In this document: in pieces, positions 1-10,900 of the stretch
Layout of the letters: the number at the start of each line of letters is the position of its first letter
How positions within the stretch are numbered: position 1 is the stretch's first letter
DNA from: a virus
Lineage: Duplodnaviria; Heunggongvirae; Uroviricota; Caudoviricetes
Length of the DNA stretch: 16,953 bases
IMG/VR virus record: IMGVR_UViG_2529293063_000008
Strand: one strand, 5' to 3'
Program-made: the position numbers and the translations under genes
The notes under the pieces: model-generated
The model's database searches: none
Told to the model about the DNA's origin: nothing
Seen by the model: only the letters and a program-made list of their open reading frames with translations

Positions 1-190
1 ATATGTCCTGCAATATCTTCGTGCGCTTCATCTGCTCGCGTTTATTGAGCCGGTATGTAAGCACACCGAGGATAATGCTGAACGCGACACCGATAATGAA
101 GCCCCAATCCTGCAATGACAGGCTGGCAAAGAACGCAGCAAGACCAGCGCTACCATAAGATGCACTGCTGTATCGTTCATCCATCTTCAT
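1..190 (-). CDS. Holin (class II / pinholin-like), 5' part only; gene continues past the window start
   Basis: Minus-strand ORF from ATG 188-190 running off the window: MKMDERYSSASYGSAGLAAFFASLSLQDWGFIIGVAFSIILGVLTYRLNKREQMKRTKILQDI. Dual-start MKM motif, two hydrophobic segments, basic tail, SD GAGGT about 8 nt upstream. Absent from the ORF track because it is truncated. Confidence 0.5.
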   Translation of the reverse strand, partial: MKMDERYSSASYGSAGLAAFFASLSLQDWGFIIGVAFSIILGVLTYRLNKREQMKRTKILQDI

Positions 191-240
191 ATCTCTTACC
201 TCGCAATAGTTGCTGAGGTTTCGGCTTGGAAACTATATGG

Positions 241-271
241 CAAAAATAACCCCTACCAAAAACGGCAGGGG
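241..271 (-). terminator. Putative intrinsic terminator between methyltransferase and holin
   Basis: On the minus strand CCCCTGCC-GTTTTTGG-TAGGGG can form a GC-rich hairpin followed by TTATTTTTG. Confidence 0.35.
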
Positions 272-285
272 AATATATTCTCCAG

Positions 286-1362
286 TTACTCAAATAACTT
301 TTTCACTTCATCAACTGTCTGAAGATAACGTTCGCTCTCAATCTCAATACCTATTGCCTGACGTCCTAACTTCAGCGCAGCTTTAATAGTTGAGCCTGAT
401 CCCATAAAGAAATCGGCAACGATATCTCCGGGGCGTGAACTACTCTTTATAATATGTTCCATCATCGCTGCAGGTTTTTCACATGGGTGCTTGCCAGGAT
501 AATATTGCACAGGAGGAAACTCCCATACATCGGTATAAGGTACATCAGCAGTAACATGAAATGGACGGCGTAAATTTTCATACTGCACCTTCAAATCATC
601 ATACTGCTTCTTTACTTCCTCATAATGTAATTTCAGATCGCTATAACGCTTTTCATGTTCTGAATAATCAACATTAAAAGGATATGGACACTGGACACCG
701 AGTGAATCTGCCTTCCTGCGAAATAATTCGCATAGTTTATTAAAATCAATTAATGATGGAAGCCGCCACTGCGAATAAGAAAACCAGTGTGAACACATCT
801 GCTTTCCTGTCGCTGAATTAATGTCTGCGGCTGATATATCTAACTGACGGCGAGCCAGCGAAAAAGCATCAATTAGTGGAGAAAAAATATTTTTTCTTAA
901 ATCTGCACATTTTGAAGCATAACCTGACTGACCTTTCGCATAACCTGACGCGCCGTAATGCTCTGCAAATAATATTCTTTCAGTAGCAGGAAAATAAGCC
1001 CTTAAACTTTCTTTATGACAACCGCGCCACATACCACTGGGTTTAGCCCAAATGATATGGTTCAGAACATTGAAACGGTCGCGAGTTAATAATTCAATTT
1101 TTGACGCAAGGCGAGAGCCGGTAAACATATACAGGCTGCCATTAGGGGCCAATATCCGCCAAAATTCTGCCAAAAATTCGTCAATCCACCCCAAAAAGTC
1201 AGCATCGCTATCCCACTGGTTATCCCATGCGTTAGCCTTTACGCCGAAGTATGGTGGGTCTGTTGCAATCAAATTGACCGAGTTATCAGGGATGGTTTTG
1301 ATAAATTGCAGAGAATCTGCGCAAACGAGTTGCGCGCCATGAATATTAGTGGTTTTGAACAT
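286..1362 (-). CDS. DNA methyltransferase, beta-class amino-MTase (N6-adenine or N4-cytosine), orphan (no restriction partner seen)
   Basis: DPPY motif (ATDPPYFG) near the N-terminus and FxGSG motif (FFMGSGSTIKAA) near the C-terminus, i.e. motif IV before motif I. Start taken at ATG 1362 (MFKTTNIHG...); the longest ORF starts at ATG 1407. Confidence 0.8.
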   Translation of the reverse strand: MFKTTNIHGAQLVCADSLQFIKTIPDNSVNLIATDPPYFGVKANAWDNQWDSDADFLGWIDEFLAEFWRILAPNGSLYMFTGSRLASKIELLTRDRFNVLNHIIWAKPSGMWRGCHKESLRAYFPATERILFAEHYGASGYAKGQSGYASKCADLRKNIFSPLIDAFSLARRQLDISAADINSATGKQMCSHWFSYSQWRLPSLIDFNKLCELFRRKADSLGVQCPYPFNVDYSEHEKRYSDLKLHYEEVKKQYDDLKVQYENLRRPFHVTADVPYTDVWEFPPVQYYPGKHPCEKPAAMMEHIIKSSSRPGDIVADFFMGSGSTIKAALKLGRQAIGIEIESERYLQTVDEVKKLFE

Positions 1363-1454
1363 AGCTATTATTTTTTTGCCTGGGTAAGCTAACCCGGCGA
1401 TGCGCATCGCGGGTGGGCTTTAGGTTCAGCCTATAGCTCTGGCATGGGTTGACC

Positions 1455-1480
1455 GCAGGACAAGCTGCAACTTGTCCTGC
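1455..1480. promoter_or_regulatory. Perfect 10-bp inverted repeat GCAGGACAAG-N6-CTTGTCCTGC upstream of the methyltransferase gene
   Basis: Arms at 1455-1464 and 1471-1480 are exact reverse complements; located 50-100 bp upstream of the MTase start codons. Confidence 0.3.
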
Positions 1481-1497
1481 GCCCACTTTTCAGGCAC

Positions 1498-1519
1498 AAA
1501 AAAACCGCCATAAAGGCGG
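1498..1519 (-). terminator. Intrinsic terminator (minus strand)
   Basis: CCGCC-ATAAA-GGCGG hairpin (1505-1519) next to an A7 run (1498-1504) on the plus strand, i.e. hairpin plus U7 on the minus-strand transcript. Confidence 0.5.
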
Positions 1520-1558
1520 CTTGTTAGCTGTTGGGTACAAAAAACCCAACTTAACAAA

Positions 1559-1587
1559 ACAATAACTAAAAACCGTCATTTTGCCAA
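1559..1587 (-). promoter_or_regulatory. Candidate sigma70 promoter (minus strand) feeding a short leader that ends at the 1498-1519 terminator
   Basis: On the minus strand TTGGCA (-35, 1582-1587), 17-nt spacer, TATTGT (-10, 1559-1564). Confidence 0.25.
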
Positions 1588-1605
1588 GCTTTTTCGTTTT
1601 TGTGC

Positions 1606-1625
1606 TGTGCGACCGTGGTCGCACA
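1606..1625. repeat. Centromere-like palindrome, copy 1 (TGTGCGACC-GT-GGTCGCACA)
   Basis: Core TGCGACCGTGGTCGCA has 7-bp arms and a 2-bp centre; the same core recurs at 5900-5919 and 8345-8360. Same architecture as my recollection of the F sopC SopB site TGGGACC-AC-GGTCCCA. Confidence 0.5.
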
Positions 1626-1629
1626 GTTT

Positions 1630-1857
1630 TTAGAAAGTTGCCTGCTTATATTCATCGGTCAAAGAATATCGACCAGACCCGCTACGCTTTGCAATCCCAA
1701 AACAGATCATCTGTTCGATGATAAATTCAACGGCAGCCTGACTCAAAAAACAGGCTTCGCTTAACTCTTTCAGGGAAATGCGTGGGTATCCACGCATAAC
1801 ACATTCCACACTCAGGGCCGCTTCAGTCATATTTCCACGAATTTCATTAATATTCAT
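1630..1857 (-). CDS. Small putative winged-helix DNA-binding protein (75 aa)
   Basis: ATG at 1857 with SD AGAGAGG 5 nt upstream; C-terminal ...IIEQMICFGIAKRSGSGRYSLTDEY resembles a recognition helix plus wing. Followed by the 1498-1519 terminator. Confidence 0.55.
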   Translation of the reverse strand: MNINEIRGNMTEAALSVECVMRGYPRISLKELSEACFLSQAAVEFIIEQMICFGIAKRSGSGRYSLTDEYKQATF

Positions 1858-2257: not shown

Positions 2258-2569
2258 ATGTTTAACGTGATAACCCACCCTGCAGCACTGGATGAACTGC
2301 TTGAACTACCAGATGATTTGCGAGGTCGCATGACCAGATTAATTGAGCGACTGGAGAAAGAAGGCAACAAACTGAAGATGCCCCATAGCCGTGTAATAGG
2401 TGGAGGGCTTTTTGAACTACGAGTAGGGGATAAAAACATCGCAAGAACGCTGTACGCCTACGCGACTGGTAACGAAATTTATCTATTGCATGCATTTGTA
2501 AAAAAGACACAGAAAACACCGGTGAAGGCTATCGAAATCGCCAGAACTCGCCTGAAGGAGATGAACTGA
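2258..2569 (+). CDS. Type II toxin, RelE/HigB-fold, gp49-like family
   Basis: 103 aa, SD GGAGG 7 nt upstream. Sequence ...GGGLFELRVGDKNIARTLYAYATGNEIYLLHAFVKKTQKTP... matches my memory of HigB/gp49-type toxins. Toxin-first order with a 1-nt overlap (TGATG) to a downstream HTH gene. Confidence 0.8.
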   Translation: MFNVITHPAALDELLELPDDLRGRMTRLIERLEKEGNKLKMPHSRVIGGGLFELRVGDKNIARTLYAYATGNEIYLLHAFVKKTQKTPVKAIEIARTRLKEMN

Positions 2570-2856
2570 TGAAAGCGAAAGGCATCCCGTTTAACGAAGT
2601 AAAAGAAAAACTTCTCAACACTCCAGAAGCCATCAAAGGATATGAAGAGGCCGATAAAGAGCTGGAGATGGTCGAAATGTTATACGAAATGAGGGAAAGA
2701 GCAGGTTTAACGAAGTCAGCTCTGGCTGAACGAATGGGATTGCGCCCGTCAGCTATCAGCCGCCTGGAAAGCAATCCTTTAGGGGCAAGCATGAAAACTT
2801 TATCAAAATATGCCCAAGCATGCGGTGCAACGATTAATATTAATGCCGTCTATTGA
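2569..2856 (+). CDS. HTH (XRE-family) antitoxin, HigA-like partner of the gp49-like toxin
   Basis: 95 aa; HTH segment LTKSALAERMGLRPSAISRLE; SD AAGGAG 9 nt upstream; start overlaps the toxin stop. Confidence 0.8.
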   Translation: MKAKGIPFNEVKEKLLNTPEAIKGYEEADKELEMVEMLYEMRERAGLTKSALAERMGLRPSAISRLESNPLGASMKTLSKYAQACGATININAVY

Positions 2857-5874: not shown

Positions 5875-6177
5875 TTAAATGGCGTTATTTTCATTTTCTT
5901 GTGCGACCGTGGTCGCACCCTCTCTAATTTCCAGATAACGCTTAATCCAAAGATTTTCTATATGCTTATTACCTGGCTGATTTGATAAATACCAATCGGC
6001 AATTACAGACTGCTTATTACTATCGGGTCGTGTCCTGTAACCGCAAGTTGGACACCAGATGACATATTCATTTCTTACCCCCGAATACCTTAATTCTGGC
6101 TTCGACGGTTTCCTGAACATAACTTGTTTACAAAGGCAGAATGGCACTTCCTGCCCGATGGCGTTTGATGATTTCAC
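5875..6177 (-). CDS. Zinc-finger protein, possibly Lar-family restriction-alleviation protein
   Basis: Two Cys pairs (PFCLC ... CPTCGYRTRP) about 27 aa apart, followed by ADWYLSN, in the pattern I recall for Lar-like proteins. Start set at GTG 6177 (SD GGAG) so that both Cys pairs are included; overlaps the upstream gene by about 50 nt. Confidence 0.4.
   Translation of the reverse strand: MKSSNAIGQEVPFCLCKQVMFRKPSKPELRYSGVRNEYVIWCPTCGYRTRPDSNKQSVIADWYLSNQPGNKHIENLWIKRYLEIREGATTVAQENENNAI
5900..5919. repeat. Centromere-like palindrome, copy 2
   Basis: TGTGCGACCGTGGTCGCACC; core identical to 1606-1625 and 8345-8360. Lies inside coding sequence at the junction of two small genes. Confidence 0.5.
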
Positions 6178-6838
6178 TGCGCTTCTCCGCCGCATTTAAT
6201 AATGCGGTTCGATTTAAGCTCAGACATCGCGACTTAATTAAAAGCCAGCGTTCTTTATAATCTTGTCTCCAGCTATCAATAGATATATTCAGTAGAAAAC
6301 TCAGATGCCTGTCCTGTTCTCTCTCATCAACTGCCTCAGCACACGTAAGTTCTGATTTAACCTGCTGTGCCGCGTAATAAATCAATTTCCGCATGGCTTT
6401 TTTCGTGGAGGCCTTCATTTTTTTAAAGCCGCCCCCCGAATGAGCAACCAGAAAATCAAGCCATAACCACTGACAAACAATCACATCATTGTTGTAGTCA
6501 GGCTTGCATCCGTAGCAATAATAAAGCCAGGCTGATTCCTCGTTATTCAACTGACAAATAGCCCTGCGCCAGCTGGCGCTCTGAAAATCAATATCAGTGA
6601 GCAACATTGATGATTGTTTAAATGTTTTCCCCTGGTGGAATCTAACCGGCTCAGCGGGAACGGACACTTCGTATGAGTTATCATCCCCCACACTGATTGA
6701 CCGGACTGGTTTATTGTTAAACCGTCCTGATCTACCGAGACGCATCTGCTCAAGCTGGACCTCCAGAATGCCACGCTGGCGATAATGAACATCAGCCAAT
6801 GCCGTAGAGACGCAGCTGCGTATATACTCAAGCTCCAC
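6128..6838 (-). CDS. Hypothetical regulatory protein immediately downstream of cro (position of a cII- or Q-like early regulator)
   Basis: 236 aa; GTG start at 6838 overlapping the cro-like stop by 11 nt (ATG 6745 is an alternative); Cys-rich segment WLYYCYGCKPDYNNDVIVCQW. Function not assignable by eye. Confidence 0.5.
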   Translation of the reverse strand: MELEYIRSCVSTALADVHYRQRGILEVQLEQMRLGRSGRFNNKPVRSISVGDDNSYEVSVPAEPVRFHQGKTFKQSSMLLTDIDFQSASWRRAICQLNNEESAWLYYCYGCKPDYNNDVIVCQWLWLDFLVAHSGGGFKKMKASTKKAMRKLIYYAAQQVKSELTCAEAVDEREQDRHLSFLLNISIDSWRQDYKERWLLIKSRCLSLNRTALLNAAEKRSEIIKRHRAGSAILPL

Positions 6839-7982: not shown

Positions 7983-10900
7983 ATGACATTAAACGATTTC
8001 TATGCGGATCGCTTTGGCAGCGATCCGTTCTCGCTAATTGAAGCAGCACGGGATGAACTAACCGAGCTGGCACAGATGGCTGGTATCAACTGGCCTGCCT
8101 GTTCCGACAACATCCAACTCAACCCTCGCGGGGGTGTTGAGCGTTACTCTTCATACAATAAAACATCTCCAGAAGCTCTCGAGAAGAGCCTCAAAGGACG
8201 CGTAGAAATTTACTCCCGGCTGGAACACAGCAAAGGGATTGATTACCCGTTCATTAACTTCGTCCATAAAGGCAGCGATGCTGGCTCATGGAGCGGTTTC
8301 TCCTTCCTGTTTTCTGAATATCGCCGTGAGCAACAACGGAATAATGCGACCGTGGTCGCACAACCGGAAGAAGAACGGGCAAGAATAGAACGTCAGGCCG
8401 AAGCACGTCGTCGCCGTGAAGAACAAAAACGAATTAATGACCTGAAAAACAACCAAATTGACCATGAACGTTTGCTGGGATGGCTGGCATTTCACAGCGC
8501 GTGGGAACATGCTCCTGCAGAAGACGGCTCATGGCCATATGCGATTAAAAAAGGTATTCGTGACGTTTTTAATTCGTGTGATGTGCGTCGCGTGACCAGT
8601 CACGACAGCGCAAAATGGAGCAGGGGGCCAACCACGTATATGGCTATCCCTCTGGCTCACCTGGACGGTCGTTACGATGGTCGTATTGTGGGTTGGCAGC
8701 GAATCGACAAACAAGGTGGAAAATACCAGACCAGCGCAGTAACCAGCGGCGATTTCGTCGGTGCCTGCTTTGTTATCGGTGAGCTGAAAGGGGCGCAAAA
8801 CATCGCTGTTACAGAAGGTTTTGCTACTGGTGCATCCATCTGGCTTGCCACGAAAAAAGATAAACGCTTTGACGCTGTGGTTGTCGCTGTATCCGCTAAC
8901 AACATGGTTCATGTTGTGGAACAACTGGTAAACATGTACCCGGCGGCAAAAATCACCTGCGCACTGGATAATGACCGGAAATCTGCCACAGAAGGAAAAG
9001 GGAATACCGGCCTGCGGACTGGCTATGAAATCTTATCGAAATTCAACGATGTCCGCTGCGTCTATCCAACTTTTGAAGACGATCCGCAAATGGAGTGCAG
9101 TGACTTCAACGACCTGCACAAACTACGTGGACTTCGTGAAACAGCACGTCAACTATTTGCAACAGCAAACCGCCTGAAAACTGGTACTGATTTGCTATCT
9201 CTGACGCTCAACCGCCTGAAGACAATTAAGCGGGATAACCGTCGTACTTTTGCCAAAGAGCTGCTGAGAGCGGTGGATATTGGCATGCTAACCTGTCCGG
9301 TTCCTAACAGTCCGTCAGATTTATTTAACATGTTCTGCATCGTTCTGCGTGAAATGGGACTGGAAAATATCTATCGCGCTACGGTAAAAGACCACATTGC
9401 CCGTCGCCTGAATAAAAAGTGCCGTATTGCCCAGGCTCCGCGCTCTTTCAGCGAACGCATAACTGATCCCAATAAACGCCCTCAACATATCACATATAAG
9501 CGTTTTGAAACTTCGGTAATGACCGATGATGTCCTGAAGTACGTGCAATCACTACAGGGGATAGTCATCGTCCGTGCTGGTATGGGTTCCGGCAAATCTA
9601 CTGGATTGTTACGACCGTTAATGCATAGCTCAGAACGTGGTATCTCTGTTGCTCACCGTGTCTCCCTTATTGGCGGCCTGTGGGAAATGATGACAGAAGG
9701 AAAAGGTGTAAAAGCCGATATCCTGCACTATCAGGATCCTGGCTATCAGGAAATAGCTCCATACGCCAGTAAACTGACCATCTGCATAAACTCGATTGTT
9801 AAAAACTGCTGGCAACCGTTGATGCGCCAGCACGACTATTTTGGCTTTGACGAGGCCACACAAGGGCTACGTGCCGTTCTTTCCGGTCGGGCTATGGAAA
9901 ACCCGGTGGCTGTATTCAATACGCTAATTGACGCGCTGGCCAGAACAGAACAACACCCAATCATGGTGGATGCTGATGCGAATGATCTGCTGGTTGACCT
10001 GGCTGAACTGGCTATGAAACGCCGTGAAGAACTAGGTTTACCGGCATGGCTGCAGATCCACGTAATTGAATTACCTGTTGATGTTCGCAACCGCGAAACA
10101 GGTGAGCCAATCCGGGTTTTTTATACAGAAAAAGATCGCATCATGACCGAGGTGGTGAAAGCTGTATCGGATGGCGAAAAAATCATGTTGGCCACCGACA
10201 GCTCCACCTTTGCAGAAGATGTGACAGCCACCCTGAGAATGCATTTTCCTGGTAAGAAATTTCTGTGTGTAAACCAGAAAAACAAACCAGAGCCAGAAGT
10301 TGAAGCATTTACCAATCAACCGAAAAAGATGGTCAAAAAATACGACGGCCTGATTTATAGCCCGTCTATTTCATCCGGCGTGTCGATTGAGCAAAAACAT
10401 TTTGACCGTCATTTCGGCATGTTCTGTGGTGAAGTTGTACCCAGCGACGCAGTGCAAATGCTACGCCGCGACCGTACAGCAAAAGAATTTATTATCGGCT
10501 TTGATAAAGCTCGTGCAAAACGTGAAACTGACCCGCAAAAAATAGAACGAGCATTCGCCCAGGCATTGCTTGCTACCGCAGGTATGAACGGTGAACTGAC
10601 GGATGTCGTTTTCGATGGCGACCGTATATCAATGGGGGTGGCCAATACCGACTTTACCAGGATGAAAATTAAAGCAGCCGCTATTGAAGCGACTGCGCGT
10701 AACGACTACGCCAGCAACATGATCTGCATCATGCACAGCGACGGTTATAAGGTATCGCCGCTGGCCACCGATTATGCTGCGAATGATATCGGTAAAGAGC
10801 TGCGTAAAGAAGCGCGGGATATTGTGTGGGAACAGACACTGGATCTGCATCTCAATACAGAAACTCCACAAGAATCAGAGCGTGAAGAACTGCTAAAAAA

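Follow-up and report, generated by a model that had tools for sequence, protein, structure and literature searches.

Introduction

How is an orphan DNA methyltransferase gene controlled when it stands at the head of the lysis genes of a phage-plasmid? This question is raised by a 16,953-nt stretch of viral DNA (IMG/VR record IMGVR_UViG_2529293063_000008, Caudoviricetes), which we call the window and in which a methyltransferase gene is preceded by a promoter, a hairpin and a terminator. A first-pass annotation, made from the letters alone, had likened this arrangement to a late promoter of the lambdoid type, from which an antiterminator allows a short transcript to be lengthened, and had placed methyltransferase and holin together in one late unit. 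The homology to phage N15, the annotations of phage phiKO2, the family of the Q protein and the shared orientation of the genes all bear this proposal out, and we consider it highly probable that positions 1-1857 (minus strand) hold the region that controls the late operon in an N15-type telomere phage-plasmid, working through a proposed Q-dependent mechanism. The late switch itself adds little, being a further copy of the arrangement annotated in GenBank for N15 and phiKO2 and reportedly dissected by experiment in N15, and is not new. Going beyond it are the assignment of the enzyme to the M.EcoGII family and a conserved module of a structured leader and a small open reading frame (ORF), a module that we found neither catalogued in Rfam nor described.

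Results

Homology of the control region to N15 and phiKO2

The stretch 1400-1660 was compared with the intergenic region between genes 51 and 52 of N15, to which it is 81.9% identical over 225 nt (E 2e-53). In the GenBank record of N15, a -35, a -10 and a rho-independent terminator are annotated between gene 51 and gene 52 (methylase), a terminator follows gene 52, and the holin gene 53 comes next. In phiKO2, the aligned positions bear the labels 'putative plasmid partitioning site', 'putative late promoter' and 'terminator'. They precede Gp52, which is itself annotated as a putative DNA adenine methylase and is likewise followed by a terminator (AY374448, Casjens et al. 2004). The minus strand of the window presents a small putative winged-helix ORF, a SopB palindrome, a promoter, a hairpin, a U7 terminator, a leader, the methyltransferase, a second terminator and the holin, in that order. 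All elements of the first-pass annotation were recovered on this strand to within about 1 base. In Escherichia phage PhiR46_1, the methyltransferase, holin, lysozyme R, Rz and terminase genes are consecutive on one strand.

Late promoter, 5' hairpin and terminators

The candidate promoter of the first-pass annotation is present as a sigma-70 site homologous to N15 p52 (1587-1559, minus strand), with the -35 hexamer TTGGCA (1587-1582), a 17-nt spacer and the -10 hexamer TATTGT (1564-1559). It aligns with the annotated -35 and -10 signals of both N15 and phiKO2. Judged from the spacing, transcription would start at A1552. The sequence TAAGTT, followed by GGG, forms a -10-like element at 1553-1548 (minus strand, about -1 to +5) and is a candidate sigma-70 pause or Q-loading signal. 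The pattern TA.GTTGG (about -1 to +8) is invariant in all 21 aligned sequences of the N15, phiKO2 and PY54 clades, despite differing promoter hexamers. By analogy with lambda pR', TAAGTT-GGG (1553-1545), which overlaps the stem of the following hairpin, may be the pause element at which Q loads.

The 5'-proximal hairpin (1550-1530, minus strand, about +3 to +23) has a 7-bp stem and a 7-nt loop (-10.4 kcal/mol, z -3.5). The first-pass annotation had recognized it, one base off, at 1531-1551. Its stem is maintained in relatives through G-U pairs and compensatory changes, as judged by eye. Downstream lies an intrinsic terminator (1498-1522, minus strand; -12.9 kcal/mol, z -4.2), composed of an 8-bp G+C-rich stem (1522-1505) and U7 (1504-1498). 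The terminator scan and the shuffle z score confirm the U7 terminator that had been called at 1498-1519. Stem and U-run are invariant across the N15, phiKO2 and PY54 clades, and a terminator is annotated here in N15 and phiKO2. The terminated RNA is predicted to be about 49-55 nt long. With its 5' hairpin, variable linker and terminator with U-tail, this predicted RNA of about 50 nt (1498-1552, minus strand) has the shape of an Hfq-type small RNA and can be likened to the short pR' transcripts of lambdoid phages. A trans-acting seed in it is disfavoured because the linker is not conserved.

A second terminator-like hairpin (243-271, minus strand; -16.3 kcal/mol, z -4.3), absent from the first-pass list, has a 9-bp stem (271-250) and a U-rich tail. 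It separates the methyltransferase gene from the holin start at 190, where N15 and phiKO2 also carry an annotated terminator. A promoter-like site, TTGGTA-16-TATAGT (232-259, minus strand), overlaps this hairpin. It is probably a chance match, given that consensus scans of the region returned 8 promoter-like sites against 5.2 expected.

The Q antiterminator

The first-pass annotation had pointed to a 236-aa early protein as a possible partner of the region. By its match to PF06323 (Phage_antiter_Q; residues 2-229, E 2.7e-84, 282.7 bits against a cutoff of 25), this protein (6128-6838, minus strand) is the Q antiterminator. Its gene adjoins and follows a Cro gene (PF14549), with a divergent cI-like repressor gene nearby. 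In N15, the late promoter p52 has reportedly been confirmed, the stretch from p52 to the first ORF is said to contain terminators, and the Q analogue is reported to have been shown to act as an antiterminator.

An orphan methyltransferase of the M.EcoGII family

The longest ORF of the methyltransferase gene spans 286-1407 (minus strand, 373 aa; Pfam PF01555 N6_N4_Mtase, E 5.8e-47), which would start the gene at 1407. The conserved N-terminus (MFKTTNIHGAQLVCADSL versus MENTVKINSAQLVHADSL; phiKO2 Gp52 and PY54 ORF60) and the DNA alignment point instead to the ATG at 1362, and the start is corrected accordingly, giving a protein of 358 aa (286-1362). The in-frame ATG at 1407, which falls inside the leader, is the start of the 373-aa call in PhiR46_1. 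Gene 52 of N15 is annotated from 41621, yet homology to the window protein begins at 41387; on our N15 locus (L003), this discrepancy concerns 2764-2998.

The beta-class assignment made in the first pass holds, because the DPPY motif (residues 35-38) is followed by a central insert with the recognition domain and then by FxGxG (FFMGSG, residues 318-323). The family match and the homology identify an N6-adenine DNA methyltransferase, the best solved relative of which is M.RsrI (E 2.4e-22); M.MboIIA and CcrM are also among its solved relatives. As had been noted, no restriction endonuclease gene is adjacent. The flanking genes are the holin and two small gp50/gp51-like ORFs, and the enzyme is therefore an orphan rather than part of a type II restriction-modification system.

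Full-length homologues, 53-62% identical, were found by tblastn in 95 phage records. Beyond telomere phages, they include many Stx2-converting phages, phiP27, SfV, the cdtI phage, mEp460, and Vibrio and Aeromonas phages, and some of them adjoin a holin gene. The homologue in Stx2 phage 1720a-02, whose gene immediately follows Q, is 57% identical over its full length (E 1e-148). The great similarity of that enzyme to M.EcoGII has been pointed out (Murray et al. 2018, PMC5778455). According to the same paper, M.EcoGII is a beta-class enzyme of 349 aa that methylates adenine whatever the sequence context, and acts on RNA as well; it is silent in the lysogen, and its constitutive expression slows growth. 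With the 1720a-02 enzyme as the compared relative, the window methyltransferase is, by sequence, a member of the M.EcoGII family. The first-pass annotation had left its role as protective or regulatory. A late protective role is the better supported of the two since the enzyme belongs to the M.EcoGII family, and the regulatory part of that suggestion is less favoured. The harmful non-specific activity of M.EcoGII-type enzymes would explain the placement of the gene between terminators, and the silence of a toxic relative in lysogens fits tight late control. In the PY54-like phage P840, an insertion in the methylase gene still allows lysis and lysogeny.

Some orphan methyltransferases are regulators, and an enzyme that lacks an endonuclease partner might be expressed in the lysogen from a promoter of its own, serving the plasmid prophage as an epigenetic regulator or in protection of the linear plasmid, independently of late control. 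We regard this as very improbable. A consensus scan of the minus strand from the terminator to the ATG found no promoter-like site, so the methyltransferase should depend on read-through. Moreover, terminators flank the gene on both sides, it heads the late or lysis unit in telomere and lambdoid phages alike, and both M.EcoGI and M.EcoGII are reported to be silent in lysogens and harmful when constitutive (PMC5778455).

Proposed mechanism of late control

We propose that the sigma-70 promoter initiates transcription near A1552 and that the -10-like TAAGTT-GGG at the transcript start probably holds RNA polymerase in a sigma-dependent pause. Without Q, the transcript would stop at the U7 terminator and yield the RNA of about 50 nt. 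During lytic growth, Q expressed from the cro-Q early operon would modify the paused polymerase, which could then pass the first terminator, the 134-nt leader, the methyltransferase gene and the second terminator and proceed into the holin, lysis and head genes. The second terminator would guard the lysis genes, and the IR3-type SopB palindrome upstream of the promoter may couple the partition proteins to late-promoter output. Because of this arrangement of promoter, terminators and Q, the methyltransferase would be produced only late in lytic growth, when progeny DNA would be methylated against restriction, and would be kept off in the plasmid prophage, to which non-specific activity would be harmful.

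Several points weigh against this mechanism. The promoter matches the consensus at 9 of 12 positions, which by itself is not above chance, and the consensus scans returned 4 terminator-like sites against 2.4 expected. The proposed start site derives from spacing and the proposed pause from conservation. Q is not encoded immediately upstream of the late promoter, as it would be in a typical lambdoid switch; its stop at 6128 and the -35 at 1587 are separated by about 4.5 kb with several genes, unlike the arrangement in lambda. The dependence on Q is deduced from sequence, and none of the solved structures is related to the window Q by sequence. Non-specific activity has been demonstrated for M.EcoGII only, the compared relative being the 57% identical 1720a-02 enzyme, and it is possible that the window methyltransferase is sequence-specific.

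SopB-type palindromes and the late promoter

The first-pass annotation had placed a centromere-like palindrome just upstream of the promoter, and the comparison with N15 supports this. The palindrome CTGTGCGACCACGGTCGCACAG (1626-1605) is an N15-type SopB centromere site in the IR3 position. Its core, GTGCGACCGTGGTCGCAC at 1607-1624 (plus strand), fits the pattern GTGCGACCNNGGTCGCAC, of which the window holds 3 copies against 0.01 expected. The homologous site in phiKO2 is annotated as a partitioning site. The oligonucleotides for the N15 inverted repeats are printed in PMC7205306, where IR3 contains TCTGATATCGTGCGACCATGGTCGCACGGAATAGAAA. This IR3 oligonucleotide equals the N15 row of our alignment, and the window core is identical to that of N15 IR1 and IR4. 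A second palindrome, an exact match at 5901-5918, lies about 210 bp downstream of Q, which we take to be the position of N15 IR2. The third (8344-8361) carries one mismatch and lies within the gene for the 1331-aa replication protein (repA).

Whether the upstream palindrome affects late transcription was weighed against the view that it is a mere partition site beside the promoter. The latter view draws on the two further copies at unrelated places in the window, one of them within repA, and on a spacing between palindrome and -35 that varies by clade (19 nt in the window, about 9 nt in F-type relatives). Nevertheless, we consider it unlikely. In seven related loci, the site just upstream of the late promoter is occupied by an F-type palindrome, TGGGACC..GGTCCCA, instead of one of the N15 type, and the retention of this position despite the switch in specificity supports a functional link between centromere and promoter. 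In addition, the 48ST307 type carries two N15-type palindromes in tandem. IR2 and IR3 together with SopAB reportedly raise late expression in N15. The title of a study of N15 also states that Sop facilitates its late gene expression (Ravin, Rech and Lane, J Bacteriol 2008).

The tandem palindromes and the promoter of the 48ST307-type Klebsiella telomere phage were also met on a 52-kb contig from an assembly labelled Limoniibacter endophyticus KCTC 42097, the leader of which scores the same 170 bits as that of this phage. This contig may represent contamination or an unexpected host.

A covarying leader between the terminator and the methyltransferase

The 134 nt from the U-run to the ATG (1364-1497, minus strand) form a structured leader that matches our covariance model R1 with 49.3 bits (E 1e-11). 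In the proposed fold, the closing helix P0 (1496-1491 with 1382-1377) encloses helix P1 (1486-1481 with 1418-1413), helix P1a (1480-1455), the P2 region (1454-1419) and helix P3 (1412-1393), which bears TGCGCA at its tip. P1a is a perfect 10-bp inverted repeat (-21.5 kcal/mol, z -6.1), and the single-sequence fold of the whole leader has a z score of -4.7. The first-pass annotation had listed this repeat (1455-1480) alongside the terminator. The perfect repeat stands, but it does not belong to a terminator; a reading as a second intrinsic terminator was rejected, as no U-run follows it in any clade, and it is instead helix P1a of the leader.

The leader is conserved, and its hairpin sequences vary among clades while the pairing stays. 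RNAalifold on plain MAFFT alignments missed helices, with two clades misaligned by 1-2 columns in the stems, and a covariance model was therefore built on nine phiKO2-clade sequences with a hand-drawn structure. Antisense matches on the palindromic hairpins were removed from the model alignments through N-padded rows and the choice of sources and threshold. The model matches all N15-, phiKO2- and PY54-type loci as well as contigs labelled Enterobacteriaceae LSJC7, Serratia microhaemolytica and Symbiopectobacterium. Among 27 distinct telomere-phage leaders, 90.6% of the cells are paired, compared with 30-44% after sliding of the partner, and 23 of the 31 pairs vary in both positions. For 43 distinct leaders of both phage types, the paired share of the cells is 87.9%, as opposed to 34-45% after sliding, and both positions vary in 28 of the 35 pairs (272 cells); these pairing counts are inflated by the fitting of the alignments to the model. 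The covariation score for the 43 leaders is 0.452, compared with 0.145 in shuffles (0 of 500 reach 0.452) and at most 0.125 when slid, and covarying pairs include 10 of 11 in P1a and all 7 in P3. Judged by eye, P0 occurs as GCCUG/CAGGC in the window, as GCCUU/AAGGC in the phiKO2 type and as GCC-U-GUA/UAC-GGC in two others.

The apex of P3 (window 1393-1412) is a self-complementary hexamer in each sequence type seen, namely TGCGCA, GTGCAC or ACGCGT. It could be a gapless DNA palindrome or make a loop-loop (kissing) contact.

In Rfam 15, searched with the window and six related loci, no family was placed on the leader at E values up to 0.5-1. The weak matches were driven by the terminator (ctRNA_pGA1, 22.9 bits against a threshold of 45; AgrB, 29.7 against 40). 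No tRNA or tmRNA was found by ARAGORN, and hammerhead, riboswitch and tRNA-like readings of the three-way junction were dropped for want of a model match. Literature searches for a described methyltransferase leader returned nothing relevant.

Distribution and neighbours of the leader

The leader motif immediately precedes the methyltransferase ATG at 44 of the 68 homologue loci on viral contigs, and it is also present before the methyltransferase of phage 1720a-02. A loose pattern gave mostly chance matches and was discarded. A tighter pattern, scanned blindly, returned 111 matches. A methyltransferase homologue follows 108 of these, in 103 cases at one and the same offset of 21 nt. In 123 of the 163 distinct cases, a T-run is found no more than 60 nt upstream of the motif, which is thus usually preceded by a terminator.

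The second constant neighbour is a small ORF. In 134 of 160 distinct loci, a homologue of either the gp51-like ORF of the window or a 76-aa ORF of phage 1720a-02 lies within 600 nt upstream of the leader; the two proteins are 25% identical (E 4e-4). ORFs of this kind are seen at 1630-1857 of the window and at 31734-31964 of locus L187, in both on the minus strand. The distance from the end of the small ORF to the motif is 20-60 nt in lambdoid phages and 140-190 nt in telomere phages, where it is longer because the late promoter and the 5' hairpin lie between. A small ORF before the leader and the methyltransferase, as found in lambdoid and telomere phages, resembles the pairing of controller proteins with methyltransferases.

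The lambdoid version of leader and methyltransferase is carried by 2,198 of the 5,426 complete E. coli genomes (about 40%), with up to 8 copies. In many lambdoid versions (such as loci L229, L222, L254 and L184), a GATC (Dam site) occurs 2 nt ahead of the start codon, in the context …TGATCTATG or …TGATCCATG; the window lacks it. On the Stx-phage-like contig L254 (2600-3098), three tRNA genes and the small RNA STnc100 (108 bits) come after the methyltransferase, which places the module of leader and methyltransferase between Q and the tRNA region.

The motif is absent (Erwinia), truncated or replaced (Vibrio and Psychromonas types) before some homologues. In 11 loci of the Vibrio and Psychromonas types, another conserved leader, GAUGCCUUGAGUACCUGAGACCCA … UGGAGAGGAAGCA … long GC hairpin … UUCAAGGCUC, lies about 170 nt before the ATG. 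It shares just the closing helix GCCUUGA/UCAAGGC with the leader described above and is often preceded by the palindrome CTGTATATATATACAG. A third group of eight loci retains only the 5' part of the motif, with GUGAAAUGG, the P1a hairpin and AUUCGCC, and then diverges; it was missed by the covariance model.

Possible functions of the leader

Our first-ranked reading, which we hold tentatively and at somewhat less than even chances, is that the leader belongs to an uncatalogued structured RNA family, with P0, a three-way junction (P1, P1a and P2) and P3, that acts in cis on M.EcoGII-family genes beside a winged-helix partner and gates translation or the fate of the mRNA. Such a second layer would add to the Q-dependent late switch and does not exclude it. 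The leader, perhaps with the winged-helix protein, would control translation, stability or processing of the methyltransferase mRNA; either the enzyme might regulate itself in this way or the winged-helix protein might bind, with read-through by Q necessary and not sufficient. The covariation, with its 28 double-sided pairs, is strong. The position of the motif before the ATG in 44 of 68 loci, the 108 of 111 blind matches that precede the gene and the partner ORF in 134 of 160 loci tie the leader to this gene family. Before the methyltransferase ATG, no canonical Shine-Dalgarno sequence is found at normal spacing. In addition, M.EcoGII methylates RNA and is harmful when constitutive (PMC5778455). 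However, the AUG is predicted to be mostly unpaired (0.6-0.8), and simple occlusion of the start codon by the leader is unsupported. The loss or replacement of the motif before the Erwinia, Psychromonas and Vibrio-type homologues also counts against this second layer, as does the inflation of the pairing counts by the model-fitted alignment, and the functional role is a proposal. We hold a second layer of control to be about as likely as the RNA-family reading.

The covarying repeats might instead act as DNA, that is, as dyad-symmetric operators, for instance for the winged-helix protein, and so obstruct or adjust transcription that enters the methyltransferase gene. We rank this second and consider it improbable. 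The self-complementary hexamer at the tip of P3 would form a gapless DNA palindrome in each type, the constant neighbour encodes a small protein of a DNA-binding type, and G-U cells (64) are overall not above A-C cells (86), with no clear strand asymmetry. P4 alone shows an RNA-like bias on the sense strand (G-U 25 against A-C 5). P0 and P1 enclose other helices, which would be meaningless for duplex DNA; P3 has conserved single-base bulges in which the bulged base is free to vary; and the arm sequences vary freely with pairing kept, which is unusual in an operator. The nested long-range helices and the variable bulged bases argue for RNA. Translational or stability control of a toxic enzyme is our preferred reading.

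Identity of the window and neighbouring genes

Over its bases 1-2300, the window shares 98.3% identity with Escherichia phages YDC107_1 and PhiR46_1 and about 75% with Klebsiella phage phiKO2. The window encodes a protelomerase (TelK domains, E 1e-50), a P22-type Cro (PF14549), a cI-like HTH/S24 repressor and the 1331-aa replication protein. On the strength of these genes, the toxin and antitoxin genes and the DNA identity to phages, the window is an N15-like telomere phage-plasmid. The stretch 286-1630 is found in 16 of 5,426 complete E. coli genomes, each time on a plasmid of about 36-63 kb.

The holin gene (1-190, minus strand) is represented by its N-terminal part and is cut by the window edge. 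Its 63-aa fragment gives near-cutoff Pfam holin matches, and the gene is annotated as a holin in PhiR46_1. The 75-aa ORF upstream of the promoter (1630-1857, minus strand) corresponds to phiKO2 Gp51 and N15 gp51 and is a putative winged helix-turn-helix protein according to below-cutoff Pfam matches (HTH_24 and PCI). Farther upstream, a divergent toxin-antitoxin-like pair (2258-2856, plus strand) consists of a Gp49-like protein (PF05973, E 2.5e-29) and, after it, an HTH_3 protein (E 1.6e-12), the counterparts of N15 genes 49 and 48.

Discussion

The arrangement described here gives a concrete answer to how a harmful, non-specific methyltransferase of the M.EcoGII type stays silent in lysogens. 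In telomere and lambdoid phages, the gene would stand first in the late unit, with Q-dependent terminators ahead of it. M.EcoGII-type enzymes are now widely used as chromatin-footprinting tools. The lambdoid version of leader and methyltransferase is also found in Shiga-toxin phages, in which it lies between Q and stx. If the leader is regulatory there, it would matter for when the late and toxin genes are expressed.

Among known systems, N15 is closely similar. It shares the order of a gp51-like ORF, a SopB palindrome, a -35 and -10, a terminator, the methylase, a terminator and the holin, as well as a Q gene several kilobases upstream with a second palindrome downstream of Q. The window differs in belonging to the YDC107_1/PhiR46_1-type lineage, which has a methyltransferase 83% identical to that of N15, and in being known from sequence. 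In phiKO2, the DNA identity is about 75%, the helix sequences of the leader differ while their pairing is kept, and more genes lie between the methylase and the holin. M.EcoGII resembles the window enzyme in its N-terminal DPPY, central recognition domain, C-terminal FxGxG and length of about 350 aa, and in being a phage-borne orphan. It is silent in lysogens, and its 1720a-02 relative is likewise encoded just after Q. The cis-regulatory leaders of Rfam 15 offer a more general parallel, as covarying multi-helix elements of the 5' untranslated region tied to one gene family; none of them matches the leader described here.

The pR'-qut-tR' region of lambda, the source of 6S RNA, shares with the window a sigma-70 promoter of constitutive type and a -10-like element in the initially transcribed sequence, which in the window is a candidate pause signal. 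Also shared are a protein of the Q family, the lysis and head genes as late genes farther downstream, and early termination of a short transcript, which for the window is a prediction. In the window, Q lies 4.5 kb away rather than adjacent, belongs to the Pfam family PF06323 and is without a sequence match to solved structures. A site for a partition protein lies upstream of the promoter, a methyltransferase is the first late gene, and the terminated RNA would measure about 50 nt, compared with 194 nt for the 6S RNA of lambda.

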